Assembly (NCBI GenBank): GCA_045587125.1
Contig: JAZNBN010000012.1
Span: 17,461 to 81,460, forward strand
Length of the DNA stretch: 64,000 nucleotides
Direction of reading: 5' to 3'
Origin: Candidatus Enterousia sp.
GTDB taxonomy: Bacteria; Pseudomonadota; Alphaproteobacteria; Rs-D84
Under the pieces are notes generated by a model, which did no database searches, was not told where the DNA came from, and saw only the letters and a program-made list of their open reading frames with translations. Positions 2,432-57,053 of this stretch are shown one piece after another (within the stretch, counting starts at the first letter, position 1; each line of letters starts with the position of its first letter). Made by a program: the position numbers and the translations under genes.

Positions 2432-3703
2432 TTATGCAAATCGACGTATGGCATCGTATGCCAAGCCTAATCCGACACTGGCCATTTTATTAGAATCTGA
2501 AATAACAGCGTTTGGAAATACACTGCGAAACATTGCGACAATATATGGAATTTGAGTTGACCCACCTGTTAATATTATCAAACTAATATCCGTGTTTTTA
2601 ATTTGAGCCTGGGTCAAACATTGATTCATTGAATTGTTTATCTTTGCCACATCCGCAGATATTGCATGTACAAATTCTGTTGCACGCGTTGTAATAATCG
2701 GGCAATCATCTAAAAAATCCAGACGTTGGGTTATTTCGTCATGGCTAGATAAACTTATTTTCGCACTTTCAACATAATCTAGATTTGTATGTCCAAGATT
2801 ATTTTCCAATATGTCCATCATTCTATGTATTTTATCAGGTGACAATGCTCCAATCTGAACACCACGCATCATGTTCCATACATGGGGCGTATAGGCACGA
2901 TTTACAGATGACCATGTTGATAAATCAATATATGGTGCATTTGGTACAGGTAATATTTTATCACCACTGCGATACATTGAACCCAAACCAAACATCGGCA
3001 TAAAATGTTTAATTGCAAACACATAATCAAAATCATTTCCACCAATACGAATACCTGTGTTCGCCAGAATGTCATCCGTTCTGTCTAATTTATTCATTAA
3101 ATTTGCCCCAAGACGAATTACAGTAAAATCTGATGTGCCACCACCAATATCTATGACCATAGCCAAATGTTCTGAATTTAAACTGCGTTCATGGGCAAAA
3201 GCGGCCGCAATCGGTTCGTATTGAAATCCAATGTTCTGGAACCCAACATTGCGGGCAATCCGTTCCAGTTGATGTTGTGCCATGTCATCGCCACATGAAT
3301 CATTGTCGCGAAAATGCACAGGTCGCCCCAAGACAACATCTGTTACAGATTGATTAACAGATTCATCTAGCTTTTCTTTTAAATATTGAATAAAATATCC
3401 AATAACATCTTCAAATTTGGTGTATTTTCCATATATCTGGGTACCGGTGGACATTGTTGATGTACCTAAAATACGCTTTAAACTACGCATCAGTCGCCCT
3501 TCGGAAAAAGGTTCACAATATTTTTCATACGCATCATGCCCGATAAAAACATGTCTGCTGGATTCATCAAAAAATAATGCCGTTGGAATCGTATCACAAT
3601 TTGGATCAATTCTAACCATGCGTGGCACACCACCATCAGAAACAGATACGGCAGAATTAGTTGTCCCGAAATCAATTCCGGCGACATAGTGTAATGAAGA
3701 CAT
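2432..3703 (-). CDS. Hsp70-family ATPase (YegD/HscC-like)
   Basis: Motifs GIDFGTTNSAV and DIGGGTSDF are present. Start chosen at the internal MSSLHY, preceded by AAGG. Confidence 0.8.
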   Translation of the reverse strand: MSSLHYVAGIDFGTTNSAVSVSDGGVPRMVRIDPNCDTIPTALFFDESSRHVFIGHDAYEKYCEPFSEGRLMRSLKRILGTSTMSTGTQIYGKYTKFEDVIGYFIQYLKEKLDESVNQSVTDVVLGRPVHFRDNDSCGDDMAQHQLERIARNVGFQNIGFQYEPIAAAFAHERSLNSEHLAMVIDIGGGTSDFTVIRLGANLMNKLDRTDDILANTGIRIGGNDFDYVFAIKHFMPMFGLGSMYRSGDKILPVPNAPYIDLSTWSSVNRAYTPHVWNMMRGVQIGALSPDKIHRMMDILENNLGHTNLDYVESAKISLSSHDEITQRLDFLDDCPIITTRATEFVHAISADVAKINNSMNQCLTQAQIKNTDISLIILTGGSTQIPYIVAMFRSVFPNAVISDSNKMASVGLGLAYDAIRRFA

Positions 3704-3921
3704 TAGAAAAACCTTGGAGCAGTTATAGTGTATTATAAAATGCTTTTTATTGGTTGCAAGTTTTTTCTGTTGTCGCCCCAGCAATCACAGATTGCGAACG
3801 CTTTGTCCACACTTCCTTTTCGTCACAAAAACAAAACGCCCACAATGGGGTTTTGATTATTTCTGGCGAAGTATGATTTTATCACGACCAACCACATACA
3901 AATTCCAATTCTACAGGGAAT

Positions 3922-4602
3922 TTACAGGGATTTTTTATATTCTGTTGGTATGCTGCGATTCCATGTAACGTCACGTTTAATGATTTTTGCGGGATTGCCG
4001 CCAAGTGCTGTCCATTCTTCTGTAAAGGCCTTGGTTACGATTGTTTCGGCACCGACAATGGTATTGTTTGGCAATTTTGCATTTTTCAGTAATCTAACTC
4101 CATGTCCCAGCCAACAATTATCGCCAATAACAACGTTGCCGGGGCCATTTAGTACTTGACCTGTCTTTCTGTCTAATACGCTATGAAAATCTGTTGCGAC
4201 AATACTGATGTGCCAGCCAATCATACATTCTTGTCCGATTGTTACAGAGGAGCCACTTTCACATAGTTCTATATATCCACCCGTAATAGTTGTGTTTTTA
4301 CCCCATTGCAAGTGTTGCTTGTTGCCATTTCTAACAAAAACTGACAGATTGTTTATTTCTGGGCTTTCTTCAAAATTCAAAACCGCATCATCTGCAACAA
4401 TTACTATTTTAGAGCCTTTAAATATAGTTTTGTCTGTCAAACATACCGTATTGTTGTTGCCATTTATTTCTATATCCAAACCAGATATTTTCTTGTGCTT
4501 TCCCAATACAATCTGAACACCATCGGATTGTTTTATTATGATTTTATTATTGTTTCCAATAATTTTGTACTTTCGTAGCCAGCATTGTTTGATGTTTTGC
4601 AT
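3922..4602 (-). CDS. Left-handed beta-helix (hexapeptide) acyl/acetyltransferase
   Basis: Hexapeptide pattern IGDNCWLGHGVRLLKNAKLPNNTIVGAETIV. The gene abuts the upstream one (4602/4603). Confidence 0.75.
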   Translation of the reverse strand: MQNIKQCWLRKYKIIGNNNKIIIKQSDGVQIVLGKHKKISGLDIEINGNNNTVCLTDKTIFKGSKIVIVADDAVLNFEESPEINNLSVFVRNGNKQHLQWGKNTTITGGYIELCESGSSVTIGQECMIGWHISIVATDFHSVLDRKTGQVLNGPGNVVIGDNCWLGHGVRLLKNAKLPNNTIVGAETIVTKAFTEEWTALGGNPAKIIKRDVTWNRSIPTEYKKSL

Positions 4603-5445
4603 TTAAGAGTCCTTTGTCTTTAAGAAACGATTGGCAATCGCAGAATTTACTTTATCAATATATTTATCCATTGACATGTCATTCTTAACTTCATTATGGT
4701 TGTATTCCATATAGGCAGCATCCCATGCCGTGTCTTCATTTCTAAAACGTGCGGTTTTAGAACTTAAAGCATCGCCTTTACTGCGTTTAATCAGATATTC
4801 TTCATAAGATTTAAAAATATAATGTTTGATATGCATATTAGCATATGTCCCGTTTTGCAGCCTGGCATTTGATATTGGCACGATTGGTTCACCTATTGCA
4901 TTTACCGCCACATAACCATCAATGGCTGATGGTAAATGTAGATTTTTCACTATTATGCGTCTTGGGTTTATAATGCTTTTGCACATTTCTGATGTAACAT
5001 TTGTCGTGTTATGAGATTTGAAACGTTCGATTACCAATCCCGGCTGTTTAGTTTTACGACCTGAATCACCATATACCATCCACTGTAAAACAACGGCGGC
5101 TTGGTCTTCAAATTTTTCTAAATCTGTTCTTATGTTACCTGTGTCTGAATATAAAAACTCATCAATATCAATAACAGCCAGCCAGTGGGTATCATTTTGA
5201 TGTTTGTTAACACAATCCCTGTAGGCTGGCATTTGCATGGCGATACCAGGCCAATACGTATAATCTACAATACCGGCATCAATGTAAGGCTGTAAAACCT
5301 GTCTTATATTATCTGTACTGCCGTTATCATAGATATAGAATTTCTCCACCCCAACAATCAAATGGTATTCTAACCATTCCGGCATATATTCTGCCTCGTT
5401 CTTGATAATACAAGTGGCAGATAAATAATATTGTGGTTTTATCAT
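4603..5445 (-). CDS. Glycosyltransferase (GT2 / GT92-like fold)
   Basis: N-terminal CIIKNEAEYMPEWLEYHL...YIYDNGSTD and a DIDEF (DxD-like) motif. Overlaps the upstream gene by 4 nt. Confidence 0.65.
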   Translation of the reverse strand: MIKPQYYLSATCIIKNEAEYMPEWLEYHLIVGVEKFYIYDNGSTDNIRQVLQPYIDAGIVDYTYWPGIAMQMPAYRDCVNKHQNDTHWLAVIDIDEFLYSDTGNIRTDLEKFEDQAAVVLQWMVYGDSGRKTKQPGLVIERFKSHNTTNVTSEMCKSIINPRRIIVKNLHLPSAIDGYVAVNAIGEPIVPISNARLQNGTYANMHIKHYIFKSYEEYLIKRSKGDALSSKTARFRNEDTAWDAAYMEYNHNEVKNDMSMDKYIDKVNSAIANRFLKTKDS

Positions 5446-6872
5446 CTAAACTTTTGTTTCAATATTCCGTTGTGTATAATATATTCAGCAGTTAGGGGCA
5501 ATTGATCCAAAAATGCCCTTTCATGCGATATAACCAGAAAAGCACCGGGATACTGAGATAGAACCGATGCAATATATTGCTTTGTTTCAATGTCAAGGTT
5601 GTTTGTTATTTCGTCCAGAATCAATAATTTTGGTGGTCGTGCAGCAATTTGCGCCAATGATAATCGTGCCTTTTCACCGCCTGACAATGTCTTGACCTTG
5701 GCGAACACTTCTTCATTTTTTCTGAATAAGAATGAATTTAGATGTTTTCTTATTTCCAAGGAATTCATGGATGGATTTCTATCTTGAATAGTGCCTTCTA
5801 CGGTTTGTTCTGAATCAAGATTTTGATAATGTTGTTCCAAATACCCTATATCCTTGGTGGGCAACAAATGCCAATCACCATTACACGTAACTTTTGGGTC
5901 TTGCATTAACGCACGAATAAAGGTAGTTTTACCAGATGCATTACTGCCACTGAGGGCAATCTTATCATTAGAATCAATTGAAAAATATATTTCAGACAAA
6001 ACCGTTTGAGTTCCATAACCACATTCCCCAAAAGAAACAGATACAAGGTTACTATTAGATTGCGTGTATGCACTGTCTAAGACAAACTTTGGTCTGTATT
6101 CTTCTGGTAGTCTGTTACTACCTATCTCGGTTTGAACTTCTTCTAATTTTTCACGCAACTTGGTAATTTTTGCACCAGCTTTTGCCTGGGCGTTACCAGA
6201 TTTTGCATCAAAGCCCAGTTTATCATTGTCTTTGGCTTTCTTTTTGCCGGACTTTGCCATTTTTTGTGCTTCTTGCTGACGCTGAATTCTTAGTTTTTTC
6301 TTTTCTTTTTGTAATGAATCCAATGCTTTCTGCTGAACTGACAGCTGAATTCCCTTTTCAGACATATAATCGTAATAATTGCCAAAGAAAACATTTATGC
6401 GATCATTTTCGATATGCCAAATTTTATCAACGCATTTTGTCAGCAAATCAATATCGTGTGTTACAATTATCAGTGTTCCTTGATAATTGTTCAACATTCT
6501 CATCAATGAATATTTGGTATTTTGGTCTAGGTGATTTGTCGGCTCGTCCAACACCAATACATCTGGATGGCTTGCAAGTGCATCTGAAAAAGATTTATTA
6601 AACCTTTCGCCACCACTTAGATCGGTGTGTTGTAAAACCGTTTGTGGCACATAACCAATACGTAATCCATCAACACCAGAAACTCGTCCTGAGGTCGAAT
6701 CCATATTATCTGTTAAAATTTTTAACAAAGATGATTTGCCGGTCCCGTTACGACCAATAATACCAATACGTTCCCCGGGAAGAATTTGAGTGGAGAACCC
6801 AGAAAAACAAATCTTGTGTGGAAATTCAAGAGATAAATTCGTTATAGATATTGGTTTATGTGCCATAAACAA
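5442..6872 (-). CDS. ABC-F family ATPase (two ABC domains, no membrane domain)
   Basis: Two Walker A motifs (GRNGTGKS, GSNASGKT), two LSGGE signatures and two Walker B motifs (LDEPTNHLD, LDEITNNLD). A Lys/Gln-rich interdomain linker joins them. Confidence 0.8.
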   Translation of the reverse strand: MFMAHKPISITNLSLEFPHKICFSGFSTQILPGERIGIIGRNGTGKSSLLKILTDNMDSTSGRVSGVDGLRIGYVPQTVLQHTDLSGGERFNKSFSDALASHPDVLVLDEPTNHLDQNTKYSLMRMLNNYQGTLIIVTHDIDLLTKCVDKIWHIENDRINVFFGNYYDYMSEKGIQLSVQQKALDSLQKEKKKLRIQRQQEAQKMAKSGKKKAKDNDKLGFDAKSGNAQAKAGAKITKLREKLEEVQTEIGSNRLPEEYRPKFVLDSAYTQSNSNLVSVSFGECGYGTQTVLSEIYFSIDSNDKIALSGSNASGKTTFIRALMQDPKVTCNGDWHLLPTKDIGYLEQHYQNLDSEQTVEGTIQDRNPSMNSLEIRKHLNSFLFRKNEEVFAKVKTLSGGEKARLSLAQIAARPPKLLILDEITNNLDIETKQYIASVLSQYPGAFLVISHERAFLDQLPLTAEYIIHNGILKQKFR

Positions 6873-23844: not shown

Positions 23845-24561
23845 CTATAAACATAATTGAACAAAACTCTTACCATAAGGTGTCAGTCTAACCAAACCCT
23901 TGTGATAAAAAGCACCCAATTCTGCTTTCTGTTTTTGTATATATAACGCCTGTTCATATAGCACCTCGTACAATTCTTGTCTTGTAATATGCTCTGACAT
24001 CGTACATACAACCAAGCCCAATCTTTGCAAATTAACCAAAGCAACTGAATCTGTAAAAATTTTAACTTCATCTTTTTCGATTGGTTCAAGAATAATACAC
24101 GGATCCAATATCATTCGGTATCCACCCATACCTTTATTAGCTTTTTTTCTTACAGACACTATCGGATACATTTCAATATTTTGTATACTTTTTAATATAT
24201 TAACATCTTGTACGGATAACTGTTTTATAATCTCTACAAAGCTATCTTGTATAGCGTCACTAGTTTCTCTGTTTGAAGCAGCAGCAATCAATTTGGCAAA
24301 TATCTCCCGTTTATATTCTTCGTCTACGTACCAACGCGCCGCTTCTAAAGCTGGCCCAACTACGGACCTTTTAGGCGAAATTATATTTTTTGGACTAATC
24401 GTAGATAGATATTTTGTTATATTATTACCATAAGCAGCTATAACGTCTGGCGAAGTTTGCAACTCCCCAAAGATGCAATTTACCATAGTTATTGGACAAT
24501 TATTCATCTGTGTCATAACAGCGTCATTACCAGCACTTTGACTTTGTTTTATCTTATCCAT
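23845..24561 (-). CDS. Abi-alpha (DUF4393-like) abortive-infection-type protein
   Basis: PALEAARWYVDEEYKREIFAKLIAAASN....DSFVEIIKQLSVQDVNILK resembles the Abi-alpha core. Start set at MDKIKQ. Confidence 0.55.
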   Translation of the reverse strand: MDKIKQSQSAGNDAVMTQMNNCPITMVNCIFGELQTSPDVIAAYGNNITKYLSTISPKNIISPKRSVVGPALEAARWYVDEEYKREIFAKLIAAASNRETSDAIQDSFVEIIKQLSVQDVNILKSIQNIEMYPIVSVRKKANKGMGGYRMILDPCIILEPIEKDEVKIFTDSVALVNLQRLGLVVCTMSEHITRQELYEVLYEQALYIQKQKAELGAFYHKGLVRLTPYGKSFVQLCL

Positions 24562-24562
24562 C

Positions 24563-24712
24563 TTATGCTCGCTGTACCTGTTTAGAGTTGTCACCTGCTT
24601 TTTGTGTTTGTTTTATTGAATTTTTGTTTATATGCACCACTATACTACCACCAACAATCCCTGAGATAAAACTTACTACTAAATTTATTAAATCAACATT
24701 ATTAAAATTCAT
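24563..24712 (-). CDS. 49-aa single-TM protein immediately upstream of the Abi-alpha gene
   Basis: Not in the ORF track (shorter than 60 aa). AAAGGGG SD 6 nt before the ATG. Sequence MNFNNVDLINLVVSFISGIVGGSIVVHINK... Its stop lies 1 nt before the Abi-alpha ATG. Confidence 0.5.
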   Translation of the reverse strand: MNFNNVDLINLVVSFISGIVGGSIVVHINKNSIKQTQKAGDNSKQVQRA

Positions 24713-24798
24713 ATTCGACCCCTTTGTAATTATCGTTATTTTAACTCGCTAAGTTATAGCAAAAAATTCGTTAAAGGTCAATAAGTTACAAACAAAAC

Positions 24799-24816
24799 AC
24801 CGCCCAATTGGGCGGT
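24799..24816. terminator. Perfect palindrome ACCGCCC-AATT-GGGCGGT
   Basis: Downstream of the minus-strand gene 24843-25349, with T/A runs on both sides. Confidence 0.65.
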
Positions 24817-24842
24817 TGTTTTACTTGCTCACCACCTGTTTC

Positions 24843-25349
24843 TTATTCAAATATTTTTGTTTCTTCGTTATAAACTGCAATATATCGTTCACCAAGCCTT
24901 GCATCCCAAAACTTCTCTATGGCTTTCAATATCTCTGTCAATTCCATTTCTTTATCATCTTTTATTACTATAAGTTTGGCAGGTACATTTGTACCGGACT
25001 TTCTGCCGGTTTTACACGGTTTATTTAAATTAAAGTGTTTCGTACCATTGGCAATATTTTCCAATACTTCGCTATAGGGCATTTCTTTACTAATCACCTC
25101 TTTCTCTGCCTTTGTCTTACAAAACCAATCCCTTACATGGTAAAGTGTAATACAAGCATTTATTGCTGTTCGTTCATCGGACTCTTCTTTGTAAAACTCT
25201 CTTAGATTCTGTTTTACAATCCGATGATAAAAATACTTTGGTTCATGGTATATAAAAGATGGGCCAGGTCTTTCTAGAGAGACCTTTATATCCGGGAAAA
25301 TTTCTAGTCCTAACTCTGGTATGGATATTTTCTTAGTAAAATGTTCCAC
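24843..25349 (-). CDS. Hypothetical protein (168 aa)
   Basis: GTG start. No family recognised. Weak HEPN-like hints (LYHVRDWF, ANGTKH) only. Confidence 0.5.
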   Translation of the reverse strand: MEHFTKKISIPELGLEIFPDIKVSLERPGPSFIYHEPKYFYHRIVKQNLREFYKEESDERTAINACITLYHVRDWFCKTKAEKEVISKEMPYSEVLENIANGTKHFNLNKPCKTGRKSGTNVPAKLIVIKDDKEMELTEILKAIEKFWDARLGERYIAVYNEETKIFE

Positions 25350-25381
25350 TTTTCACTCCTTAAATTGCATTAGATAAAATA

Positions 25382-25399
25382 ACCGCCCGATTGGGCGGT
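25382..25399. terminator. Palindrome ACCGCCC-GATT-GGGCGGT
   Basis: Lies between the OMP gene and the 168-aa gene. Confidence 0.6.
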
Positions 25400-25416
25400 A
25401 TGATCGTTTTGTTAAC

Positions 25417-26142
25417 TTAAAAAACATATTTTATACCGGTCCTAATCGTATGATTTGTTAAATTTTGACCGCACTCTTTTATATCTGCTAATCGATAGTT
25501 TTCACGATGCACTCCATACACACCAAACGACTTCATTTCTTCCTCTGTACCAAAGGCTCCATCCGGAAACAAATTATTTGCATATTCAGCATTTGCCGCA
25601 TAATACCCGCCAAGATCAGCATTATTTTTTAATTTGTTCATATCATAACTGATATCAATATACAGATTATCGTGTATTTTAACAGACGTTCCCAAACCTA
25701 TAACAGCACCAGAATCCATCGAGCCAAATTTTGTTTTATTGTGTAACAAAGCACCCAACTTTACATATGGTGTAACACCTTTATACGTTCCACCAAATTT
25801 CAGACTTAACGACGACCAGTTTTTCACTGTATTGCCACCAGTGTTATAATTGATACCTAAAGCCACATAAAACCATTCGTAGCGAAAATCGCTACCAATT
25901 TCAAAGCTAGTTCCAAAATTCTTATCAGAGCCACTATGTTGGCTGTCATATATAAAGTAATAGTGTGCGGCAGGATAGAACCAATTTTGCCAATGATGAA
26001 TGTCGTGTTCTTTTATTTTATTCTGCACTAGATTAACGCCAGCACTAATTTGCGCATAAGGTTTTATGCTCCACTCTGCGTTGGCATTTGTTGCACTTAT
26101 AACAGTCAATAAAACACAAGTAAAAAATGCACATCTTTTCAT
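25417..26142 (-). CDS. Outer-membrane beta-barrel protein
   Basis: Signal peptide ending ANA, alternating beta-strand pattern, and C-terminal IKYVF. Confidence 0.7.
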   Translation of the reverse strand: MKRCAFFTCVLLTVISATNANAEWSIKPYAQISAGVNLVQNKIKEHDIHHWQNWFYPAAHYYFIYDSQHSGSDKNFGTSFEIGSDFRYEWFYVALGINYNTGGNTVKNWSSLSLKFGGTYKGVTPYVKLGALLHNKTKFGSMDSGAVIGLGTSVKIHDNLYIDISYDMNKLKNNADLGGYYAANAEYANNLFPDGAFGTEEEMKSFGVYGVHRENYRLADIKECGQNLTNHTIRTGIKYVF

Positions 26143-26348
26143 TATATCTCTCTTGCTTTCATTCCCATTCTAGCAATAACATTTAAAAATGTAAATTGAA
26201 TATATTGCATTATTCTGTGTAGCAGAAATGGGGCGTTTTTTTACAAAATTTGGTGTGGATCGCTACATTGAAAAAATACGTGCAAAAAAGCGTGCGTTTT
26301 CTGATGAATCTGGATACAGATACAAACGCATACCATCCCGACCGTTCA

Positions 26349-26754
26349 GTATTTTACACAGGTGCTACACAGATTAGCAAAATACAAAAACCGCACAAAT
26401 GACTTTTGCTGGATTCTTGGGACGCACGTGGCATTTTTAGTCCCTTTAAACTTACGGACTACTGAGGCAATGTGCTGAGCGACATAAAAAAATAATATTT
26501 TGGTCAATAAAAAAACACCAAAACTGCAGATTTCCGCCACATAATTCGTCTTATGATTGTTTTGTCGTTTTACTCTCGAAAAAGCTCCCAATCTCACGGA
26601 CAAAAATAGGTCAAAAAGGCATAAAAAAATGTTTTCCACATTTCATACACACAGGCGAAATTTCATAAAAAAATCCGCAGATTTCTGCGGTTTACATATT
26701 TTTGAAAAAAGCCTTGACTTCTGCGGAAAATTGATATATTATTCTGTTCGCTAT
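26349..26754 (+). repeat. About 400-nt cassette right-end module 1 (carries the promoter for tRNA half B)
   Basis: Homologous to 30868-31266, with shared blocks CGCAGATTTCCGCCACA, AAAAATGTTTT.CACATTTCATACACACAG and TTTTTGAAAAAAGCCTTGACTTCTGCGG. Contains the palindrome CCGCAGATTTCTGCGG at 26675-26690. Confidence 0.8.
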
Positions 26755-26792
26755 TCGGGCATAGTTCAGTCGGTAGAACAACGGACTGTTAA
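26755..26792 (+). pseudogene. tRNA-Asn 5' half, copy B
   Basis: Identical to nt 1-38 of the intact gene. Preceded by TTGACT (26714-26719), a 17-nt spacer and TATTAT. Confidence 0.85.
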
Positions 26793-26966
26793 CACAAACG
26801 ACTCAATCTTCCTATAACTTGATTTAGTTCCGAACACCCTGTAAATCTGGGATTTTTCTGATATTAAAATTGGCACTATTTTTGACGAACATAGGCTTCA
26901 AATGGGGTTTAAGCAGGTCTGTGTTTTACACAGCTGCTACACAGCACCCCATTTTACACCGATTTT
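26793..26966 (+). repeat. 174-nt cassette left-end module, copy B
   Basis: See 23643-23816. Confidence 0.85.
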
Positions 26967-27055
26967 TTTACAGCATCTCAAAAGCCCATTTTTCAGCATA
27001 TCCGATGTACTTTTTTGGATGTCGTTGGATAGATTTTTTGCAATAAGAAATAATA

Positions 27056-28492
27056 TTAGCCCTGCAAAATGTTTATCATGCAATCTATTGACTGTCGCAT
27101 TTCTTCGTCTGATGGCTCCAATGGATGTAGAAGATTACGTTCGTTCCTTGACGCCTCTGGGTGGTGGTAAAAATTTCTTATATACGTCATTAAAGTAAGC
27201 TTTTGGGCTGATTTAAAAACTCCATCTTTTAATCGTGACCATAGCTTTTCTTGTTTTACGTCATTTGTTTTCAAAAATTCTTCCATTTCATTTTCTTTTT
27301 CACGTCCATTTTTTTCTTGTATATAGCCATATAATTCATCATGAAACTCTATCGTTGGTATATTAAACGCAAAATATCTTATTTCCGCATACGTAGGCCC
27401 AAATGGCAGTACGAATTTATTGTTAACAGATTCTGCTTTAACGGTATTTTCTTGTTCGGTCAGTACGATTATTTGCGCTTTCTTATCCATAGCATCTTTT
27501 AATACATATTCGGAATGAGTCGCAAAAAATATTTGTGACTTTTGTTCTGTTTCTGTCTTAAACAAATCAGAATAAAATGAAAATATTTTACTTTGCCATC
27601 TTGGATGCATACTAATTTCTGGCTCATCAATTAAAACAATACTTCCGTCTAGCACGCCCATATTTTTGAGCAAAAAGCCTCCTCTAAATACAATTTGTTT
27701 TTCTCCGGAACTTAATTCTTCTAATCTAACTTGTTTACCGTTTTTCATAAACATCACTTGTTGCTGATTACCATCTGCTACAATCCCGTGAAAATTTATA
27801 CTTTGAAACATTTTGTTAAAAGCATCTGTGAATCTAGACAGTTTTACATGCTTTACTTCATTTGGTGGCACACAACCGTCATGCACATCTATCCAATCTG
27901 ACAAATATTGATTATCTTGCACGCTGATATCTATCAACAACTGCTTAAATAGCATTGCGATATCTTTGTTGGTATGTCTAGGTCCGAGATCTTCTAAGGA
28001 ATCGATTTGAGATGCTGTAATTGATCTGATTGCTTGTGTTTCAAAATTCATTCCTACTTTAGAGTGAATAGAATGAAATACTGAGGAAACTCTGTTCATA
28101 ATCGCAGGATAAGGATGTTTTTCTCCAGACAAGTAAACGACATAATTGTTATAACTGTCGTCTTCCGTATGTTTGTATTGTAGCACAAAAGTCTTATTAT
28201 CTAAATTCCTTACTATGGACACACGTGGTTCTCCTAAAAATGATTTAACTAAATCAAATTCTTTCGAAGTTAGTATGCATTTTATTTCAAAATCAAAAGA
28301 AGGCCTGGTCAGTAAAAAATTATGCATTTGAGCTGTTATATTATGCAACAGATTTAGCAGAGCTGTCTTCCCTGTGCCGTTTTCACCGGCAAAAACTATA
28401 TTTTTATACGGCTTACCATTTTCATCACAAAAATTTAATTCTAAATCATGTAAAATCGGATGATTCTGTAATTTTAAACTTGCTATTTCCAT
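27056..28492 (-). CDS. ABC-type (AAA_21-like) ATPase with a C-terminal domain of unknown function
   Basis: Walker A GENGTGKT, Walker B VLIDEPEISMHP, and FFATHS. Start set at MEIASLKL. Confidence 0.65.
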   Translation of the reverse strand: MEIASLKLQNHPILHDLELNFCDENGKPYKNIVFAGENGTGKTALLNLLHNITAQMHNFLLTRPSFDFEIKCILTSKEFDLVKSFLGEPRVSIVRNLDNKTFVLQYKHTEDDSYNNYVVYLSGEKHPYPAIMNRVSSVFHSIHSKVGMNFETQAIRSITASQIDSLEDLGPRHTNKDIAMLFKQLLIDISVQDNQYLSDWIDVHDGCVPPNEVKHVKLSRFTDAFNKMFQSINFHGIVADGNQQQVMFMKNGKQVRLEELSSGEKQIVFRGGFLLKNMGVLDGSIVLIDEPEISMHPRWQSKIFSFYSDLFKTETEQKSQIFFATHSEYVLKDAMDKKAQIIVLTEQENTVKAESVNNKFVLPFGPTYAEIRYFAFNIPTIEFHDELYGYIQEKNGREKENEMEEFLKTNDVKQEKLWSRLKDGVFKSAQKLTLMTYIRNFYHHPEASRNERNLLHPLEPSDEEMRQSIDCMINILQG

Positions 28493-28587
28493 ATTCGGTC
28501 CTTTTAAACCAAACATACAATGATAATGATGTAAATTCAATAACTTTTTATATAAAAACCGCCCCATTTTGGAGCGGTTGGTTTTTA

Positions 28588-28965
28588 TTACTTTGAACTA
28601 ATTGGCACAATAACGCTGCTGTCATATGTACACATATTTCCAGCCGCACCATCAACCGCCAAGCCTATCAGCCCACCAAAGACTACATTTCCAAAAATCC
28701 ATGGATTCACACTGGACGACACAATCGCACTAGATTGATTTACCTTTTTGTCTTCCATGACATTAACGGTTATATCAGAACAAGATTTTGGAACTGTTAT
28801 AAAAGTTGGCAATGTTATCTGTTGGCTTCCAAACTGCTTTGAATTTATCTGTGCTTTTACCGATGCACCATTACTGGTCATCAAGTTTATTGTATCCGGT
28901 CCGCCGTCAACAATTGAAGCACATCCCGTCAATGCCAATACAGATAAAACTAATATCTTCTTCAT
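28588..28965 (-). CDS. Lipoprotein
   Basis: MKKILVLSVLALTGCAS lipobox. Confidence 0.6.
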   Translation of the reverse strand: MKKILVLSVLALTGCASIVDGGPDTINLMTSNGASVKAQINSKQFGSQQITLPTFITVPKSCSDITVNVMEDKKVNQSSAIVSSSVNPWIFGNVVFGGLIGLAVDGAAGNMCTYDSSVIVPISSK

Positions 28966-28989
28966 GTTGTTTCCCTTTGTGTTCATGTA

Positions 28990-29637
28990 TTAGAAAGTAT
29001 AACGCAGTCCTGCACCCCACAGAAATGCTCCCTTGATATCAGAATCACCAATTGGCACAAAATAACGCAATGTTGTTTGTATACCGAATCCATTTTTTAT
29101 ATCTGCCGACAAGCCAACTTTGAAGACTGCGGCTCCACCGTCATCTTCTTCACTTATACTATAAACACCGTTGCTTATTGCTAATTCTGTCGCTGTCATT
29201 TCAACACGCTGGTTCACATTGGCATATCCGACACCAAAAATTAAAGAACCTTTTTCTGTGTCACTAAAATCAAAATTGAAATAAGCGTCTGCCATTGCAC
29301 TAAATGCCGAAAAACCAATGGTCACATCTGAATAAGCTTGGTTGTATGGAGATCTTACAACCGCATCTTCGTCAAACGCATAATCATATGCAATCGAACC
29401 GCCAAACGAAACTTTATCGTTTGTAGCCGGATTAAACTTCACGCCTGCTTCTGCACCCAGAACCTGGTAAAAATCTGGCACAAAGCTTAACATTTCATCC
29501 AATACTTCTTCTGCCTCTGAAGTATATGATAAATTAGCACCAGAGTAATTTGCCCCGATAAAAAACTGTGCATCTACCGCCAAGGCCGGCAAAGAGAACA
29601 ATGATATCGTAGCTGTTGTTAAAAATATGTTTTTCAT
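28990..29637 (-). CDS. Outer-membrane beta-barrel protein (OMP_b-brl/porin-like)
   Basis: Signal peptide MKNIFLTTATISLFSLPALA and C-terminal LRYTF. SD AAAGGGG. Confidence 0.7.
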   Translation of the reverse strand: MKNIFLTTATISLFSLPALAVDAQFFIGANYSGANLSYTSEAEEVLDEMLSFVPDFYQVLGAEAGVKFNPATNDKVSFGGSIAYDYAFDEDAVVRSPYNQAYSDVTIGFSAFSAMADAYFNFDFSDTEKGSLIFGVGYANVNQRVEMTATELAISNGVYSISEEDDGGAAVFKVGLSADIKNGFGIQTTLRYFVPIGDSDIKGAFLWGAGLRYTF

Positions 29638-29900
29638 TTTACACCCCTTTATAAAAAAAGTTAGACCGCCATGGGATGTTAGGCGGTCGGGGAGTTCAAA
29701 AATCACTTCATCGTTGATTCTGTCGCTTTCGGGTTTCCCCTGTTGTATAACGAACAGCCCCCCGACTTATTAAGTCAGGGATAAATAACGACACAAAACC
29801 ACAGGAAGCATATCGGATTTTCGATACGCCTTGATTTTGTACCGGATGAAGTGGGCTTTTGACAACCCCGAACCCATATCCCTATGGATTCATTTCATAG
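29638..29900 (-). promoter_or_regulatory. Structured 5' leader with alternative hairpins and an intrinsic terminator (candidate riboswitch/attenuator)
   Basis: - 9-bp closing helix: CACUUCAUC (29845-29853) with GAUGAAGUG (29704-29712).
- Hairpin CCCUGACUU-AAU-AAGUCGGGG.
- Alternative pairing GUCGGGGGG with CUCCCCGAC.
- Terminator GACCGCC-N11-GGCGGUC followed by UAAC and U7, just 5' of the SD. Confidence 0.55.
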
Positions 29901-29942
29901 TCTATCACTAAAAATCAAAAAAGTAAATTGAATATATTGCCA

Positions 29943-30701
29943 CTAGATTTTGTCTGGACTTTTTATACTGCAAACAGGGATAAACTTATCCTGACCGACA
30001 CACAAACACAATTCTTTTGTCAGCTCATCAATTTGTGAATGCATTTCTTTAAGAACTTCTGAAAAAATCTGTTTGGCTTCTATACTTAGTTTTTGATTTT
30101 CTGTATGTCTTTTTATAAGATCTTCTATTGGTAGGTTTTTTACCGCTTTTTCTCTGTCTTCATGACGCATACCGTGTTCAAAAATCTTTAATTCTGCAAT
30201 TTTGTTTGTTTCCCAACATGTTATTTCTTCATATTTATAAATCGCTTCCTGTGCCTTAGTCGCGAGTTTTTGTCCAAACAAATCAAGAATCCGCATAAAT
30301 ATACTATAATTCTTAGATGTGTATTTTCTTAATTCCTCCAACGACAGTTGCTCACAATCATAAATTAGATTATTTATTTTATCCTTGAGAAACATCATAA
30401 ATTGCCTGTATTCTTCTCTTATTTCTTGTTTCTCTTTCAGTAAAGCCAGAAAAAATTGCTTATTTGCGATAGCATATTGCTGTTGCATGATTTTTTCTTG
30501 AGATTTGGCAGATAATATAGAAACATCCCTTTGTTGGCGCATACAAATCCACTGCAATGAATAAATGAACAACGTTCCCACTAAGGCAACCAATGACATT
30601 TTGTCTTCTAATTTGCTGTCCCCACAAAATAAAATCCATAACAGCCATCCAACAATAAGAACCGGAATGATATATACTGCCTTATGTAATGTTTTTTTCA
30701 T
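29943..30701 (-). CDS. Membrane-anchored coiled-coil protein
   Basis: Two N-terminal TM segments followed by helical, charged repeats. Start set at MKKTLHK. Confidence 0.5.
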   Translation of the reverse strand: MKKTLHKAVYIIPVLIVGWLLWILFCGDSKLEDKMSLVALVGTLFIYSLQWICMRQQRDVSILSAKSQEKIMQQQYAIANKQFFLALLKEKQEIREEYRQFMMFLKDKINNLIYDCEQLSLEELRKYTSKNYSIFMRILDLFGQKLATKAQEAIYKYEEITCWETNKIAELKIFEHGMRHEDREKAVKNLPIEDLIKRHTENQKLSIEAKQIFSEVLKEMHSQIDELTKELCLCVGQDKFIPVCSIKSPDKI

Positions 30702-30867
30702 CACGCTACCCCCATTATTGCTATTCCATAGAATAGAAGTTTTTTTCTGCGACAGCAATATAAATCATTTTTTACCTGTATGATTTCTAAAAACACAAAA
30801 TCCAATTAAAACTACGCTTCTCCTGACGGATTTGGATATGGACACAGGCACATATAGTTCCAACTGG

Positions 30868-31266
30868 TCTGTGTTTTACACAGGCGCTACACAGATTGCC
30901 GAAATCCGCAAAAACGCTTTTGGGGCTTTGGGCGGTTTTCTGGGAAAAATTTTCGTCAAGACACGCGGACTGCTACAACCATGTACTGGGCGTTACACAC
31001 AGTTTTGGCACATTTTGGCAAAACAGACGGCAAAAACCGCAGATTTCCGCCACACAATTCGCTTTATAATTGTTTCAGAACATTGCCCACAAAAAACCAC
31101 CCAGACGCACGGACAAAAACAGCTCAAAAAAGGCGAAAAAAATGTTTTACACATTTCATACACACAGCCAATAATACACAGAAAAAACCGCAGATTCCCG
31201 AGGGTTATACGTTTTTGAAAAAAGCCTTGACTTCTGCGGGAAATTATTCTAGAATTGCTCTGCTAT
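30868..31266 (+). repeat. Cassette right-end module 2, including the tRNA-Asn promoter
   Basis: Homologous to 26349-26754. TTGACT (31227-31232), a 17-nt spacer and TAGAAT (31250-31255). Confidence 0.8.
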
Positions 31267-31342
31267 TCGGGCATAGTTCAGTCGGTAGAACAACGGACTG
31301 TTAATCCGTATGTCACTGGTTCGAGTCCAGTTGCCCGAGCCA
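31267..31342 (+). tRNA. tRNA-Asn (anticodon GTT), CCA encoded
   Basis: Hand-folded: acceptor TCGGGCA/TGCCCGA, anticodon loop CTGTTAA, T-arm ACTGG-TTCGAGT-CCAGT, discriminator G. 76 nt. Confidence 0.92.
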
Positions 31343-31568
31343 CGAATTCCGTCGCAAAATCGTTGATTTTGCGGCGTTTTTCTTTGTTAACACTTTTGGA
31401 TTTAGGCACACCACAATCCAGCTAAAAACACCACTATTTAACCCCTTGGCTACACAGCAGCTACACAGGATCCGCAACCTGTCCGCAGTCCGATGAATAA
31501 CTTACAATTTCCCAACCCATAAAAAAATCTACATATTTTGAACATATTGCAAAATTTGTCGCAAATTC

Positions 31569-32288
31569 TTAATCAAAAACTCTGTCCTGGCCCAACATGT
31601 CTTGTACTTCATCCGCATGTTGTTCGGCCATGTTTTCATTTGCGCCATTTTCAACAGCCGCCTTTAATATACGAACTATTTCGTGTTTATCGGTATAGTT
31701 TGCAGGTTCATTTTCTTCCAAAATCGTATCTACTACATCCAGCGCACGACGCCATGTTGTTACATAGGTGTTATGCGGAATAATGCTGACATCACGCAAT
31801 GTGCAACCACCATAAAATACCACAACTGAAAACATTGGGATTTCTGACATCTGTTTGGATTGTTTTTGCAGTTCTGCAATATGCCCCGCATTCTGTTTAA
31901 TTGGGTTATAGAATCTATACTTATCACGACCATACGCCAAAACCTGGGTCCATTTGTCTTGGTTGCCGCGCCCAAAAATCCAGCCACTGTAATCTTTAAC
32001 TTCAAACACAATCAAGCCGACTTTGGTCGCAACAACTAAATCAATTTGAGCATGTTTGCCATTGACTTTTTTTACATACAAATCGTGGAAAATTGCCCCT
32101 GGCGCGATACCATGTTCCAATAATTCATACACCAAGTCGCGTTCAGACCATGTGCCACGGTCCAGCGCAGTTACAGATTCAATCTGTTCATTTTTATGAT
32201 TATTGTATTCAATCTTTCTCTTGTTCTCTTGCCGCAACAACAAGAACAATCCTGTAAAGATTAAAAAGACTATAATAAACGCTTCCAT
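31569..32288 (-). CDS. NERD-domain protein with N-terminal TM anchor
   Basis: QIDLVVATKVGLIVFEVKDYSGWIFG...WTQV...YNPIKQN..H pattern. Confidence 0.7.
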   Translation of the reverse strand: MEAFIIVFLIFTGLFLLLRQENKRKIEYNNHKNEQIESVTALDRGTWSERDLVYELLEHGIAPGAIFHDLYVKKVNGKHAQIDLVVATKVGLIVFEVKDYSGWIFGRGNQDKWTQVLAYGRDKYRFYNPIKQNAGHIAELQKQSKQMSEIPMFSVVVFYGGCTLRDVSIIPHNTYVTTWRRALDVVDTILEENEPANYTDKHEIVRILKAAVENGANENMAEQHADEVQDMLGQDRVFD

Positions 32289-32386
32289 AAGGGAATTATA
32301 TCACCCGCATATAAACAGGCAAGGAATAAAAACGCTCGACTTTTTGTATAAAATCAGCAATCATACATACATATAAAAGGATTGTT

Positions 32387-32539
32387 ATGAGAATTACTTT
32401 ATATATTTTTTGTTGGCTCGCAGTATTCATCGGCGGTTTTGGCATGTTACTTTCCATGAATACAAATGATGTAATAATAGGCGGATTTTTGTATACTCCG
32501 GCTTTATTGTCTTTGGTTTATTTGGCCACACATAAATAA
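32387..32539 (+). CDS. 50-aa two-TM small protein
   Basis: Not in the ORF track. AAAAGGA SD. Sequence MRITLYIFCWLAVFIGGFGMLL... Confidence 0.35.
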   Translation: MRITLYIFCWLAVFIGGFGMLLSMNTNDVIIGGFLYTPALLSLVYLATHK

Positions 32540-32549
32540 GGATTTTTCC

Positions 32550-32702
32550 ATGAATAAAATATTTCTAATTGGGATATTATTAACTTTATCAGCATGCAAT
32601 AGTTTTCGTTGCGAATTTACGCATCCAGACAACATGAGTCCACAAATGTTACAAATTTGCTCTGCTTATGCAAATTCGGATAGTGTTTATATTGGTAAAT
32701 AG
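32550..32702 (+). CDS. 50-aa small lipoprotein
   Basis: Not in the ORF track. AAGGA SD. MNKIFLIGILLTLSACNS lipobox. Confidence 0.4.
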   Translation: MNKIFLIGILLTLSACNSFRCEFTHPDNMSPQMLQICSAYANSDSVYIGK

Positions 32703-32838
32703 AAACCGTAACTGGCTCATATAACCGGACCGCCACCAAGTGTAACAGTAAAAACCACATCTTCCTGACCCACCTAGCGCAAGAATATACCAAGCGATTT
32801 GAGTATCTGTGGGGGATGTATAGTCGCAAACAAACTAA

Positions 32839-34869
32839 CTAGCTTTTAAGAAACATAACATTTGAGAATGGTCTATGCATACCTTTAACATTAAAAAGCA
32901 GTGCATATCGACAATTATTTATCACATTACGCTCATAAATAATCTGCCGGATCATTTGCTCATTTTCCCCATTATAAAACACTAAAAGAATACCTATATC
33001 ATAAATAGGCAAAAACCAAATGCGTTTTGTTTTTTTTGCTTTTTGTATCCCGAGCTCTACCTGTTTAATAAACTGCACCTGATTTATCATTTTTGTAGAA
33101 AAGTTTTTATTTGGGAAAGGCATTTTTAATAAATCCAAACAAAGATTTATGTTTTGCTTTTTGGGCTGATATATTTTATTAACAATACACATCAATTTAT
33201 GATCTGCTCGTATTGCTGGTTTAACAAGCTTGCTATTCATATCAAATAAATCATAATATTCATCAATTTTCATGTCCGAAGAATATCCGCTAAAATATAA
33301 AGAGTCATACCGTTCGTCAAAAACGATATTAAGCCCGGTATCTAGATATAACCCTAGCAAATCAATATCATCTCCAGAAAGTGTGGGGAATTCATTAGTA
33401 AAACTAAGCTTGTATTTCTTTATTAAAAAATCTAACAATAAAATTTCACTATCTAACAGATCTGCCACTATTTCCAAATCCGACAGCACAAATGTTGGAT
33501 TTACATTTGTTTCTACCTCATGAGCAATGGCGTACTCTTCCATATTATTTTTATCCATAATAGAATTTCTTGGCAGAGCGTCTAACACAACATTGTATTT
33601 TATAAACTCTTTTATTTCATCTGGCTTAACTTCAATATGCCCATCTTGCGTTTCTAACACTAAATTGCCTGTTTGAGACTTTAAAAAACTTTCAAACCTA
33701 TCTGCCTGTTTTGAGGCGTACATTATATTATTTTCATAGTTTTCTTTAAATGCATTATCAGACCCTCTATAAATCGAATCCTTCGGACGTGCAGCTTTGG
33801 CCTCAAAAATTATCGCCTTATCTCCCAGTATTACGGTATGATCATTTTCAAAATTTTGTCCTTCATATTGATATTTAGCATTCTTTAGATGTATTGCATT
33901 TGGAAAGACCTTGGTTAATATCGCAGACAAACGTTCTTCTAAGTATTCGGGGCGTACTCTATTCTTATATGCCTTGTTCAACTTTTCATTGGACAATAAA
34001 AGAGTTTCTAAAATGGCTTTATGATTTGTTAGCATGCGAAATATATGAAACATAAAGTATTTACCATTTATTCTGATAATCGGCTTTTTCTGAACATATT
34101 TGCCTAAGAACAGATACATTTCGTCAACCTCGCTCAATTCGCCAAATTCCAACGAAAGTGCATCTAATACAGATATTATACGCTCTTCTTCAGTACCAGC
34201 AGGAAACAACCCTACAAGTTCTTCCGCACTCACCAGAATATAATCAATGTAATCAGCTAAACTGATCTCGTCGCCTGCTGAAATTTGCTTTAGTATCTCT
34301 TCTTCCTTGTGCCATAGATACGCTGGAAGTTTTTTATAAAGCACATCAAAAACAATGTTCAATTCCATATCAAAATACGGCTTTGTATCTATCTTCCTTA
34401 AGAGATCTTCTATGTACTGTCGCCTTTGAAACGGATATCCTTCACCTCTAACCAAAGCAGTATGATTTCTTATGCTTTTTATAAACAATGAATCTTCTTT
34501 ATCTTCCGACAAATTAAACCAGCCAAAATTAGCACAACAATTGAAAGCCAAATCATAAATTTCTTGTATCTCCTGAGGAGTTGGTTGGGCGAGCGCAAAA
34601 GCATCATATCGCTTTCGTAACATTAAGGATACGATTAACTCTAATGGGGCTTCTGTTGGATTTTCTGAAGCGATATAATCAGTTGCACGTTTGCAACACT
34701 TGATATATTTTTCATATAATAGCCCCTGCAATATAAGAAAAGGGTTAAATTCCAACAATAGTTCTTTCAACTTTTTTAAAGAACTTGTAAATTTATCTTT
34801 TAAATGCTTGTCGTACTCCTGAATAACGCTCTGTTGTTCTAAATCTTCCATTTCTTTACCGTTTGCCAT
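32839..34869 (-). CDS. Large hypothetical protein with a central PD-(D/E)xK-like motif
   Basis: 676 aa from MANGKE. ENDHTVILGDKAIIFEAKAA resembles a D...ExK nuclease core. No family recognised. Confidence 0.55.
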   Translation of the reverse strand: MANGKEMEDLEQQSVIQEYDKHLKDKFTSSLKKLKELLLEFNPFLILQGLLYEKYIKCCKRATDYIASENPTEAPLELIVSLMLRKRYDAFALAQPTPQEIQEIYDLAFNCCANFGWFNLSEDKEDSLFIKSIRNHTALVRGEGYPFQRRQYIEDLLRKIDTKPYFDMELNIVFDVLYKKLPAYLWHKEEEILKQISAGDEISLADYIDYILVSAEELVGLFPAGTEEERIISVLDALSLEFGELSEVDEMYLFLGKYVQKKPIIRINGKYFMFHIFRMLTNHKAILETLLLSNEKLNKAYKNRVRPEYLEERLSAILTKVFPNAIHLKNAKYQYEGQNFENDHTVILGDKAIIFEAKAARPKDSIYRGSDNAFKENYENNIMYASKQADRFESFLKSQTGNLVLETQDGHIEVKPDEIKEFIKYNVVLDALPRNSIMDKNNMEEYAIAHEVETNVNPTFVLSDLEIVADLLDSEILLLDFLIKKYKLSFTNEFPTLSGDDIDLLGLYLDTGLNIVFDERYDSLYFSGYSSDMKIDEYYDLFDMNSKLVKPAIRADHKLMCIVNKIYQPKKQNINLCLDLLKMPFPNKNFSTKMINQVQFIKQVELGIQKAKKTKRIWFLPIYDIGILLVFYNGENEQMIRQIIYERNVINNCRYALLFNVKGMHRPFSNVMFLKS

Positions 34870-34924
34870 TATATATACAACATCATCTATCATTAAGACG
34901 CTTTTTTCAAGGAATTAAAACACG

Positions 34925-35194
34925 CTATTCCACAAACACAATCCCAAACCATTTTTGCATGATGATCAGGCGGGATTGATAGTCGCCCGCAGAGTTGATT
35001 TCTGTTTCATATTCGTGTTTTAGCTGTTCTGACAATCCCAGTTCGCGCACCAGGCGATTGCACACGCCCATAAGATAGAAGATATTGCCCGCCGGCCCGT
35101 TCAGGTCGATGATCAGGCCCGTTGGGTACTTCGCCCCCGGCACACCCCGCCGGGCGCCGTGCAGTTTTCGTTCCAGCGCATCAATCGTTTCCAT
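34925..35194 (-). CDS. Hypothetical protein (89 aa) in the GC-rich insert
   Basis: ORF with strong GC3 skew. Overlaps the upstream ORF by 14 nt. Confidence 0.55.
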   Translation of the reverse strand: METIDALERKLHGARRGVPGAKYPTGLIIDLNGPAGNIFYLMGVCNRLVRELGLSEQLKHEYETEINSAGDYQSRLIIMQKWFGIVFVE

Positions 35195-35714
35195 GTGCGG
35201 TGCCTTTGGTTTTAAGCTCTTGCTGAATCTGCCCCCACATCAATTCCAGTTCGTCCAGCTCCGTCAGGTCTGATTTTAGCCACATTTCTGGGGTCTGCCA
35301 TACGTCGTCCTGGGCACAGGCCAGCGCACCGTCCACCAATTTACGGATGCGGTGGTTGCGCATTTCGTTCTTGATTGCGGACCGGTACAGCATGCGCTTG
35401 TCCACCGTGACGGGGCGTGACGTTGTGCCGGTGTGATACGCCCACCACTTGGCCATTTTTAGTTTGTTCAGCATTGCCACGCGAAGCATCGCCACCCCAT
35501 AACTCAGGGTACCGGGACCGTCGAATATCTCATCGGCCAGGTGTCGCCCGGCACGCCCGTTCAGAAATTCCAGTATTTCATCGGCGGACTTTTCGGGGTG
35601 AATTTGCCCCAGGCGTTTAACCGTCACGTCCCAGATTGCGTTTCGGTGGTCTGGGCTGTCATAGTGTGCCGCCAGCGCACCATAGAATCCGTATTGCTTG
35701 TTTATTGTTGTCAT
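35181..35714 (-). CDS. Hypothetical protein (177 aa) in the GC-rich insert
   Basis: ORF in a sharply GC-rich segment. No family recognised. Confidence 0.55.
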   Translation of the reverse strand: MTTINKQYGFYGALAAHYDSPDHRNAIWDVTVKRLGQIHPEKSADEILEFLNGRAGRHLADEIFDGPGTLSYGVAMLRVAMLNKLKMAKWWAYHTGTTSRPVTVDKRMLYRSAIKNEMRNHRIRKLVDGALACAQDDVWQTPEMWLKSDLTELDELELMWGQIQQELKTKGTAHGND

Positions 35715-35878
35715 GTCGTACCTCTTGCTTTTTCAACACAACAATGCCAACAAAAAATGGAATAGCTAGTGAAATAGACAGGAATACGCAAGAAAGTTTT
35801 TATCCCTATATCATGTTGCGTAATTGTTTGAATTTTGCTATGTTTCAAACAAAATAATTTAAAGATGCGGATCATAAC

Positions 35879-57013: not shown

Positions 57014-57033
57014 AATAGTACTTGTTAATAAAA

Positions 57034-57053
57034 AACCACCCGATTGGGTGGTT
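57034..57053. terminator. Palindromic hairpin AACCACCC-GATT-GGGTGGTT
   Basis: Same family as 15671 and 55357. Confidence 0.6.

Follow-up and report, generated by a model that had tools for sequence, protein, structure and literature searches.

A divergent sRNA-Xcc1/c4-type RNA module in the terminator-ended leaders of Candidatus Enterousia operons

What kind of RNA heads the operon that begins at position 29637 on the minus strand of a 64,000-nucleotide (nt) stretch of Candidatus Enterousia DNA (the window), and how is that operon expressed through it? The 305-nt intergenic region in question (29942-29638, minus strand) lies between two open reading frames (ORFs), the upstream one encoding 271 amino acids (aa) without a family match. 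A sequence-only reading had described the region as an orphan structured leader, matching no known class, that acts as a transcription-attenuation switch in front of an outer-membrane protein gene. We find that it is a promoter-plus-leader cassette of about 280 bp, in which a c4/sRNA-Xcc1-type module is locked by its own upstream site, a1b1, and is ended by an intrinsic terminator. The identity and structure of this cassette are held with high confidence; a switch in the leader is possible.

An sRNA-Xcc1 domain and the c4 layout

That the leader is structured, as had been claimed, is borne out by its folding energy and its conserved fold, and it has a conserved promoter of its own. The 271-nt stretch has a minimum free energy (MFE) of -100.6 kcal/mol, where shuffled sequences give -68.4 +/- 5.5 kcal/mol (z = -5.9), and none of 200 shuffles equalled it. 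At gathering thresholds, Rfam reports nothing in the leader region. A permissive scan, however, aligns 29766-29678 of the minus strand to all 87 positions of sRNA-Xcc1 (RF02221), so the leader is no orphan. The match scores 40.8 bits against a cut-off of 53, with E = 1.3e-5 in an 801-nt search and 0.001 for the 64-kb window, and homologues of the leader score 35.3-41.5 bits against the same model. The alignment defines the following elements.

29678-29766, minus strand: sRNA-Xcc1/c4-type domain, full-length RF02221 match
29766-29758 with 29694-29686, minus strand: P1, GUCGGGGGG with CUCCCCGAC
29757-29720, minus strand: P2, with internal loop AUACAACA/GAA and tip GGG-GAAA-CCC
29712-29704, minus strand: b' GAUGAAGUG, the loop of P3 (stem AAUCA/UGAUU)
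29702-29696, minus strand: J3/1, carrying a' UUUUUGA

Two elements of the sequence-only reading acquire names in this alignment. Its alternative pairing of the G-run, which is indeed possible and conserved and has GAC in common with the terminator, is P1, and the 3' arm of its long-range helix is the P3 loop. The three-way junction is represented by an AUACAA...GAA internal loop and a GNRA-capped P2 (model positions 1-87). P1 and P3 can pair in all 16 leaders that we aligned (see below), P1 at every position though without informative variation. We therefore assign the 3' half of the leader, with high confidence, to a divergent sRNA-Xcc1/c4-type antisense RNA domain; the long-range helix corresponds to a1b1:a'b' in c4-type systems. 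We also considered, and rejected, a bridge or seek RNA of the IS1111/IS110 kind: no recombinase gene is adjacent, and the 20 top-ranked of 24 papers naming sRNA-Xcc1 are, by title, not about such RNAs.

The c4 RNA of phages P1 and P7 combines a1b1, a'b' and a2b2 segments, is excised by RNase P and occludes a ribosome-binding site (RBS) with b'. In Proteobacteria, sRNA-Xcc1 is carried by integron cassettes, prophages and genomic islands. The gene downstream of it is symE in Xanthomonas integron cassettes and an ORF6N gene in APSE phage; a Xylella island has five tandem copies, and in a Xylella genome it stands beside c4 and isrK RNAs. In Xanthomonas, Northern blotting and end-mapping define a discrete RNA of 88 nt. 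Rfam places sRNA-Xcc1 and C4 in no common clan.

The relation between the two is visible in the canonical copies. A scan of viral contigs for the P2-core pattern gave at least 120 matches, and the 16 copies on the 15 loci that were scored reach 62-85 bits, as true members of the family. In copies read by eye, the complement of the P3 loop adjoins or overlaps the Shine-Dalgarno (SD) sequence of the next gene, and the complement of J3/1 lies just 3' of P1. In 72 distinct canonical viral copies we took the longest run exactly complementary to the P3-loop/J3/1 stretch: its mean length is 7.1 nt downstream of the same copy and 7.7 nt upstream of it, compared with 4.8 nt when the flanks come from other loci. 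On the upstream side, these sites are found 69-128 nt ahead of P1; in the window, a1-b1 lies 79-96 nt ahead of P1 and pairs with a' and b'. This own-flank complementarity indicates that sRNA-Xcc1 works like c4. The family shares the architecture of c4, a three-way junction whose antisense elements are the P3 loop (b') and J3/1 (a'). The usual annotation of sRNA-Xcc1 is a small RNA (sRNA) of virulence that acts in trans; the full c4 layout found here suggests that its main role is to repress, from a cis-encoded position, the mobile-element gene next to it.

Intrinsic terminators occur in two of 71 canonical viral copies, and the sequence that follows P1 reads ACCA or CCC(U/A) in canonical copies and CGCC in the window leader. 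Two further arrangements occur among the viral contigs: a hairpin and U-run between a1b1 and the canonical sRNA-Xcc1 of L014 (7440-7800, minus strand), and two tandem canonical copies about 250 nt apart in L049 (1183-1515), which recall the tandem five of Xylella.

One fold across a family of leaders

A pattern for the flipped P2 tip matched 15 loci in genome collections, 13 of them in metagenome-assembled genomes (MAGs) labelled as the gut alphaproteobacterium Candidatus Enterousia, and a metagenome scan added only two family members. Some MAGs, several in all, have the leader twice or three times. Conservation extends from the promoter through the terminator, and the genes behind it vary. 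The start of L129 and the end of L133, from the same MAG (JAZOTB01), overlap by about 190 identical bases; since contigs break inside the leader, it appears to be a multi-copy repeat, and copy numbers in MAGs are lower bounds. Searching plasmids and phages with the leader by blastn gave no match, and an H3/P1 pattern search for relatives in viral contigs was discarded after one spurious hit in a high-GC coding region. Sixteen distinct leaders from Candidatus Enterousia MAGs and gut metagenomes were aligned, and it is to these that the family counts refer. Upstream of the sRNA-Xcc1 domain and downstream of it, the window copy contains these features.

29899-29927, minus strand: sigma-70-type promoter, TTTACT (29927-29922), 17-nt spacer, TAGACT (29904-29899)
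29870-29891, minus strand: H0, 5'-terminal hairpin GAAUCCAUA-GGGA-UAUGGGUUC
29845-29869, minus strand: 5' strand of the long-range helix, GGGG (29869-29866), a1 UCAAAAG (29862-29856) and b1 CACUUCAUC (29853-29845)
29789-29844, minus strand: H2, long hairpin with outer stem CGGUACAAAAUCA/UGGUUUUGUGUCG and inner stem AGGCGUAUCG/CGAUAUGCUU
29760-29780, minus strand: H3, hairpin CCCUGACUU-AAU-AAGUCGGGG
29653-29688, minus strand: intrinsic terminator, GACCGCC-N11-GGCGGUC, then UAAC and U7
29635-29647, minus strand: SD sequence GGGG (29647-29644) and ATG (29637-29635)

The promoter, TTTACT-17-TAGACT, is present as had been read, although its edge lies 2 nt beyond the boundary given then. From its geometry, the RNA is predicted to start at G29891, about 7 nt past the -10 element, the G of GAAUCC. 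All homologues retain this spacing (-35, 17 nt, -10, 6-7 nt to GAAUCC) with hexamers that vary, as in TTTACA/TAAACT, TTTACA/TATAAT and, in the most distant member L128, TTGCAT-17-TATTAT. A simple scanner listed neither the promoter (eight of 12 matches, threshold 9) nor the terminator (loop of 11 nt, limit 8), yet the position of both is kept across the family.

RNAalifold on the 16 leaders yields, unaided, a single nested fold, here called fold A, in which the 5' hairpin is followed by a long-range helix enclosing H2, H3 and P2, and then by the terminator. The long-range helix consists of GGGG:CCCC, a1:a' (7 bp) and b1:b' (9 bp); its GGGG is invariant. Fold A is the MFE structure of every family member and pairs 97.2% of alignment cells. 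Seventeen of its pairs are changed on both sides, compared with at most six when partners are slid by 1-3 columns. Doubly changed pairs number five of nine in b1:b', three of seven in a1:a', three of ten in the inner H2 stem and two of eight in P2; in H0, where all cells are paired, there are two. In L128 the outer H2 stem is rebuilt as GUGCAGUUU/AAACUGCAC. Collecting homologous leaders and testing them for covariation, the check that had been proposed for the structure, thus recovers the same fold.

The 9-bp long-range helix between 29853-29845 and 29712-29704, noted at the outset, covaries among the leaders, and in the a/b pairing as a whole eight of 16 pairs are compensatory, spread over six haplotypes. 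At least six a/b haplotypes exist, all of them complementary, and a and b vary independently. Examples are given below as upstream site with antisense segments.

Window: UCAAAAG..CACUUCAUC with GAUGAAGUG..UUUUUGA
UCACAAG..UACUAUAGU with ACUAUAGUG..UUUGUGA
UCGUAC..CACUAUGGU with ACCAUAGUG..UACGA
UGGUA with UACCA
L128: UGAUAA..UAGUUUUAAUC with GAUUAAAACUG..UUAUCA

We rejected the argument that 'hypervariable' a/b sequences prove selected specificity, since their diversity resembles that of the H2 apex and the terminator region.

Of the four hairpins listed by the sequence-only reading, three are found: GUAUCG-N6-CGAUAU, which is part of H2, CCCUGACUU-AAU-AAGUCGGGG and GGG-GAAA-CCC. The fourth, CUGUU-N8-AACAG, loses its fifth pair in 11 of the 16 homologues; its place is taken by P2 of sRNA-Xcc1, a stem that covaries (CUG-U-UCGUU/AGCGA-CAG). 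H3 appears both in the MFE fold and in the RNAalifold consensus and sequesters the 5' strand of P1; invariant in all members, it lies beyond covariation testing. The two strands of P1 each have an alternative, invariant partner, CCCUGAC for the 5' strand and GGGG (29869-29866) for the 3' strand. Several unpaired segments of the leader are likewise invariant whereas the helices covary.

The metagenome scan also returned L141, which has only the P2 module in common with the leader family. In this high-GC metagenomic contig (4100-4260) a simple hairpin, GGUCAG...CCUGAC, holds the module, AUAUAACA-GGGGAAACCC-GAAA, and is followed at about 20 nt by an ORF whose start encodes a lipoprotein-like signal, MTFASKSVLLLAGASLLTATAC. 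The P2 module may therefore exist outside the three-way junction.

Termination by default and its possible relief

The terminator had been read correctly, as GACCGCC-N11-GGCGGUC followed by UAAC and U7 (29659-29653), and it is kept in the family. In the window its free energy is -12.5 to -13.9 kcal/mol, and its first three nucleotides, GAC, are shared with P1; the 4-nt UAAC spacer before U7 may weaken it. All 16 members have a hairpin and U-run (-8.8 to -15.6 kcal/mol), with stems that vary, for example CCGUCA/UGACGG, and always placed 10-40 nt upstream of the operon start. A GGGG(A/U) SD sequence recurs at 10-40 nt past the U-run, ahead of differing downstream genes. A conserved terminator between promoter and gene makes read-through obligatory for expression of the operon.

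Modelling favours fold A strongly. Forcing P1 costs 13-22 kcal/mol in 15 of the 16 members and 9 kcal/mol in L140. We accordingly rejected P1 as an antiterminator: when forced, it cuts the terminator stem to 4 bp, in a structure that lies this far above the MFE and gains no clear advantage even from a block of a1b1. With a1b1 blocked, fold A and the P1 fold come within about 0-7 kcal/mol of each other, and an RNA truncated at its 5' end is modelled as a shortened P1 with a full terminator. Default termination of leader transcripts is, on these models, well supported. The transcription-attenuation switch first proposed keeps part of its basis, namely the promoter, the terminator and the conserved alternative pairings; against it, the antiterminator overlaps the terminator by 3 nt and the terminator is formed in every model.

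We propose that the region serves as the 5' leader of the operon at 29637, transcribed from near 29891 and in most cases probably only as far as the U-run at 29653. In these transcripts, a' and b' would be paired in cis with the upstream a1-b1 site, while the GGGG:CCCC extension and the hairpin that captures the other strand of P1 would lock the c4-type fold and leave the terminator free. The default product would then be a compact terminated RNA of about 240 nt, with the operon little expressed. Expression would require read-through, for which the likeliest lever would be an RNA, or another factor, competing for a1b1 or a'b'. Weinberg et al. (2010, supplement) proposed a1b1 as a competitor for c4 binding, and by analogy with c4 immunity the a/b sequences may act as an address, with expression gated by a competing RNA. 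On this account taken whole, in which termination is the default, the c4-type domain is held shut in cis and a/b competition opens the leader, our judgement is evenly poised.

Several observations weigh against it. P1, H3 and GGGG:CCCC never vary, so that the family gives no sign that the c4-type fold forms; the one variable position, A or G at 29759, fits P1 and an extended H3 alike. Even with a1b1 blocked, the P1 fold is at best about 5 kcal/mol ahead, and that in L140 only, and the modelled pair probability of the terminator is 1.0 with or without the block. The a/b segments, with a diversity of 0.24-0.35, are about as variable as the H2 apex (0.23) and the terminator region (0.28), and their variation may reflect a constraint on pairing alone rather than selected specificity. 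The RF02221 score, significant as it is, does not make the leader a member at the curated threshold. The C4 model (RF01695), which works in the present setting, as its detection at L061 shows, has no match at E <= 10 in 29400-30200. No complement of a' or b', such as an a2b2 site ahead of the gene would provide, occurs in the terminator-to-ATG stretch, which is identical in window-type and L122-type haplotypes despite their differing a/b. A scan of 203 kb for a second a-b site gave only G-U-rich sites at chance level.

The main alternative is that the cassette is an autonomous sRNA gene with a constitutive, leaky terminator, acting in trans only, so that the operon lives on read-through and there is no switch in cis. 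We regard this as a minority possibility, though one to be taken seriously. Its terminator is predicted to be formed in every modelled state, and a 5'-terminal hairpin and compact fold would suit a stable RNA such as the discrete 88-nt sRNA-Xcc1 of Xanthomonas. The supplement of Weinberg et al. (2010) describes some c4 RNAs in which the 3' half of P1 overlaps a terminator and leaves it open whether these are regulatory, so that such terminators may be merely constitutive. However, the stablest fold ties up the antisense segments in a helix of 20 bp formed in cis, which would make the RNA as transcribed a poor trans-actor. No candidate target rises above chance in the 203 kb scanned, and RNAduplex over the window gave only G-U-rich sites at chance level as trans targets. 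The cassette stands in the same orientation, 10-40 nt from an SD sequence, ahead of at least seven unrelated operons, with no space for a second promoter; and invariant partners for both P1 strands (CCCUGAC and GGGG) resemble regulated access more than a plain sRNA. If the cassette is merely a leaky terminator behind an sRNA gene, it constitutes a modest new RNA family.

A more specific form of a/b competition would be an RNA-addressed switch that the bacterium has taken over from the c4-type immunity of phages. Here a1b1 would be occupied by a matching 3' domain, processed from the RNA of the same locus or of a sibling, and nascent leaders would thereby be opened to the c4 fold, RNase P processing and read-through. 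We consider this unlikely. If it were true, operons for surface proteins and restriction-modification (R-M) would have self-reinforcing, haplotype-specific ON and OFF states, a phase-variation-like control of surface proteins without DNA change in a reduced-genome bacterium.

The third possibility, which we think decidedly doubtful, is a protein- or ligand-responsive attenuator, in which an antiterminator protein, a NusG-type factor or a small molecule binds invariant unpaired parts, such as the P2 AUACAACA/GAA loop or the UUAUUUAU linker, and a1b1:a'b' is a scaffold. Invariant unpaired segments beside covarying helices, a terminator between promoter and gene, and a coherent class of exported proteins downstream are what it would lead one to expect. 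The P2 loop, however, is common to thousands of phage and integron copies of sRNA-Xcc1 in unrelated contexts, which disfavours a metabolite tied to these operons and argues for a family-wide structural or protein-binding role of the loop. The downstream genes share no metabolic theme, one of them being a type III R-M system, and no candidate regulator gene is linked to the cassette. The ligand-sensing, riboswitch-like version raised by the sequence-only reading finds no support either: an Rfam scan of 29400-30200 brought up no riboswitch and no leader family, even at E <= 10, and no ligand pocket is evident.

A leader-peptide attenuator working through the 13-codon ORF that ends in the CCCUGACUU hairpin loop is barely credible: every family member has a small ORF stopping in or beside H3, but its peptide is MLPVVLCRYLSLT in the window type, MSFLWFCVVIYP from another frame in most others, MSFL in L131 and MWCKLHCYQP in L128, the usual ATG is GTG in L136, no copy has an SD sequence, and the stem of H2, which covaries, contains the start codon. 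The 13-codon ORF noted earlier thus exists in the window while other haplotypes encode a different peptide, and translation-coupled attenuation, with a small ORF that is not conserved, falls with it.

Operons behind the leader and comparison with known systems

We turn next to the operons behind the cassette. In Candidatus Enterousia and its relatives, at least seven operons of different content have this promoter-leader cassette in front of them, and most of these encode proteins with a signal peptide or lipobox. The operon types include the following.

A putative barrel and a lipoprotein, at times then a PtuA-like AAA ATPase
Listeria-Bacteroides-repeat surface proteins
Other lipoproteins and signal-peptide proteins
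A glycosyltransferase-like operon
A type III R-M mod/res pair, in L128

The L128 pair (523-5483) comes from an uncultured alphaproteobacterium in a Hadza gut sample and encodes a protein with N6_N4_Mtase and EcoP15I C-terminal domains, followed by ResIII. Type III R-M genes elsewhere are often phase-variable. In the window, translations and family searches give the genes below.

28588-29637, minus strand: downstream operon
28990-29637, minus strand: 215-aa putative beta-barrel ORF, with signal peptide and C-terminal RYTF
28588-28965, minus strand: 125-aa lipoprotein ORF with an LTGC lipobox
27056-28567, minus strand: AAA_15/AAA_21 ATPase with weak similarity to PtuA and restriction-associated ATPases

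The pair of 215-aa and lipoprotein genes is kept in L122-L125, L129, L132, L134 and L138. The first gene had been called an outer-membrane protein gene, and its signal peptide and C-terminal RYTF make this a putative label; domain searches found no family match, and an AlphaFold (AF2) model was discarded at a pLDDT of 34. The exact protein is absent from the protein records searched, and its relatives among 5.8 billion proteins number five, all metagenomic, on contigs that share the upstream region.

The window copy lies in a defence-rich stretch (23845-34893), which fits the mobile-element habit of the wider RNA family.

23845-24594: Abi_alpha
31267-31339, strand opposite to the leader: transfer RNA gene
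31569-32288: NERD protein
32839-34893: 684-aa protein with a weak NERD match

Elsewhere in the window, G+C rises to 0.47-0.56 at 34800-35800, compared with about 0.35 elsewhere; this segment, which covers a 177-aa ORF (35181-35714, minus strand) without a Pfam match, may be foreign DNA. A sub-threshold Rfam match to a phenylalanine leader peptide occurs at 57026-57148 on the minus strand (37.4 bits against 55; E = 0.014 for the whole window).

Taken with the canonical copies, the family points to exaptation: in Candidatus Enterousia, the RNA module would have lost its RBS target, gained a terminator and two anti-P1 partners, and come to head chromosomal operons for exported proteins and a restriction system. 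Its six natural, compensated a/b variants in a near-identical 240-nt RNA form a test set for the long-unexplained a1b1 of c4-type systems.

Compared with sRNA-Xcc1, the leader has the same P1/P2/P3 junction over 87 model positions, with the AUACAA...GAA loop and a GAAA tetraloop in P2, the same complementarity of the P3 loop and J3/1 to a site about 80-100 nt upstream, and the same position, first in a transcription unit within mobile or defence-rich DNA. It differs in scoring 40.8 bits where the cut-off is 53; in its P2 tip, GGG-GAAA-CCC, which is flipped relative to the canonical CCC-GAAA-GGG; in lacking the downstream a2b2 at the RBS that canonical copies have; and in the intrinsic terminator after P1, rare among canonical copies (2/71). 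It also has the additional upstream elements H0, GGGG, H2 and H3, which together pair with both P1 strands, and its host is an alphaproteobacterium, where it is followed by genes for exported proteins, not for toxins or antirepressors.

With c4 of P1 and P7 (RF01695), the leader shares a' in J3/1, b' in the P3 loop and a1-b1 upstream in the same transcript, specificity variants through compensatory changes and, as in some c4 members, a P1 3' half that overlaps a terminator. In contrast to c4, it has no detectable sequence or covariance-model similarity to C4, and its a1 and b1, separated by 2 nt, pair with a'b' as a single continuous helix, where the c4 sites are on two hairpins. It has no a2b2/RBS target, so the classical c4 mechanism, a translational block of icd followed by polarity on ant, cannot apply.

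The layout also resembles four-segment attenuators and riboswitch platforms, with a promoter, competing helices (1:2 being H3, 2:3 P1 and 3:4 the terminator) and a U-run before the SD sequence. Unlike these, the leader has a segment 3 that overlaps the terminator by 3 nt only and has no conserved leader peptide or recognisable aptamer; its sensing element, if any, would be an RNA-RNA pairing module of phage origin.

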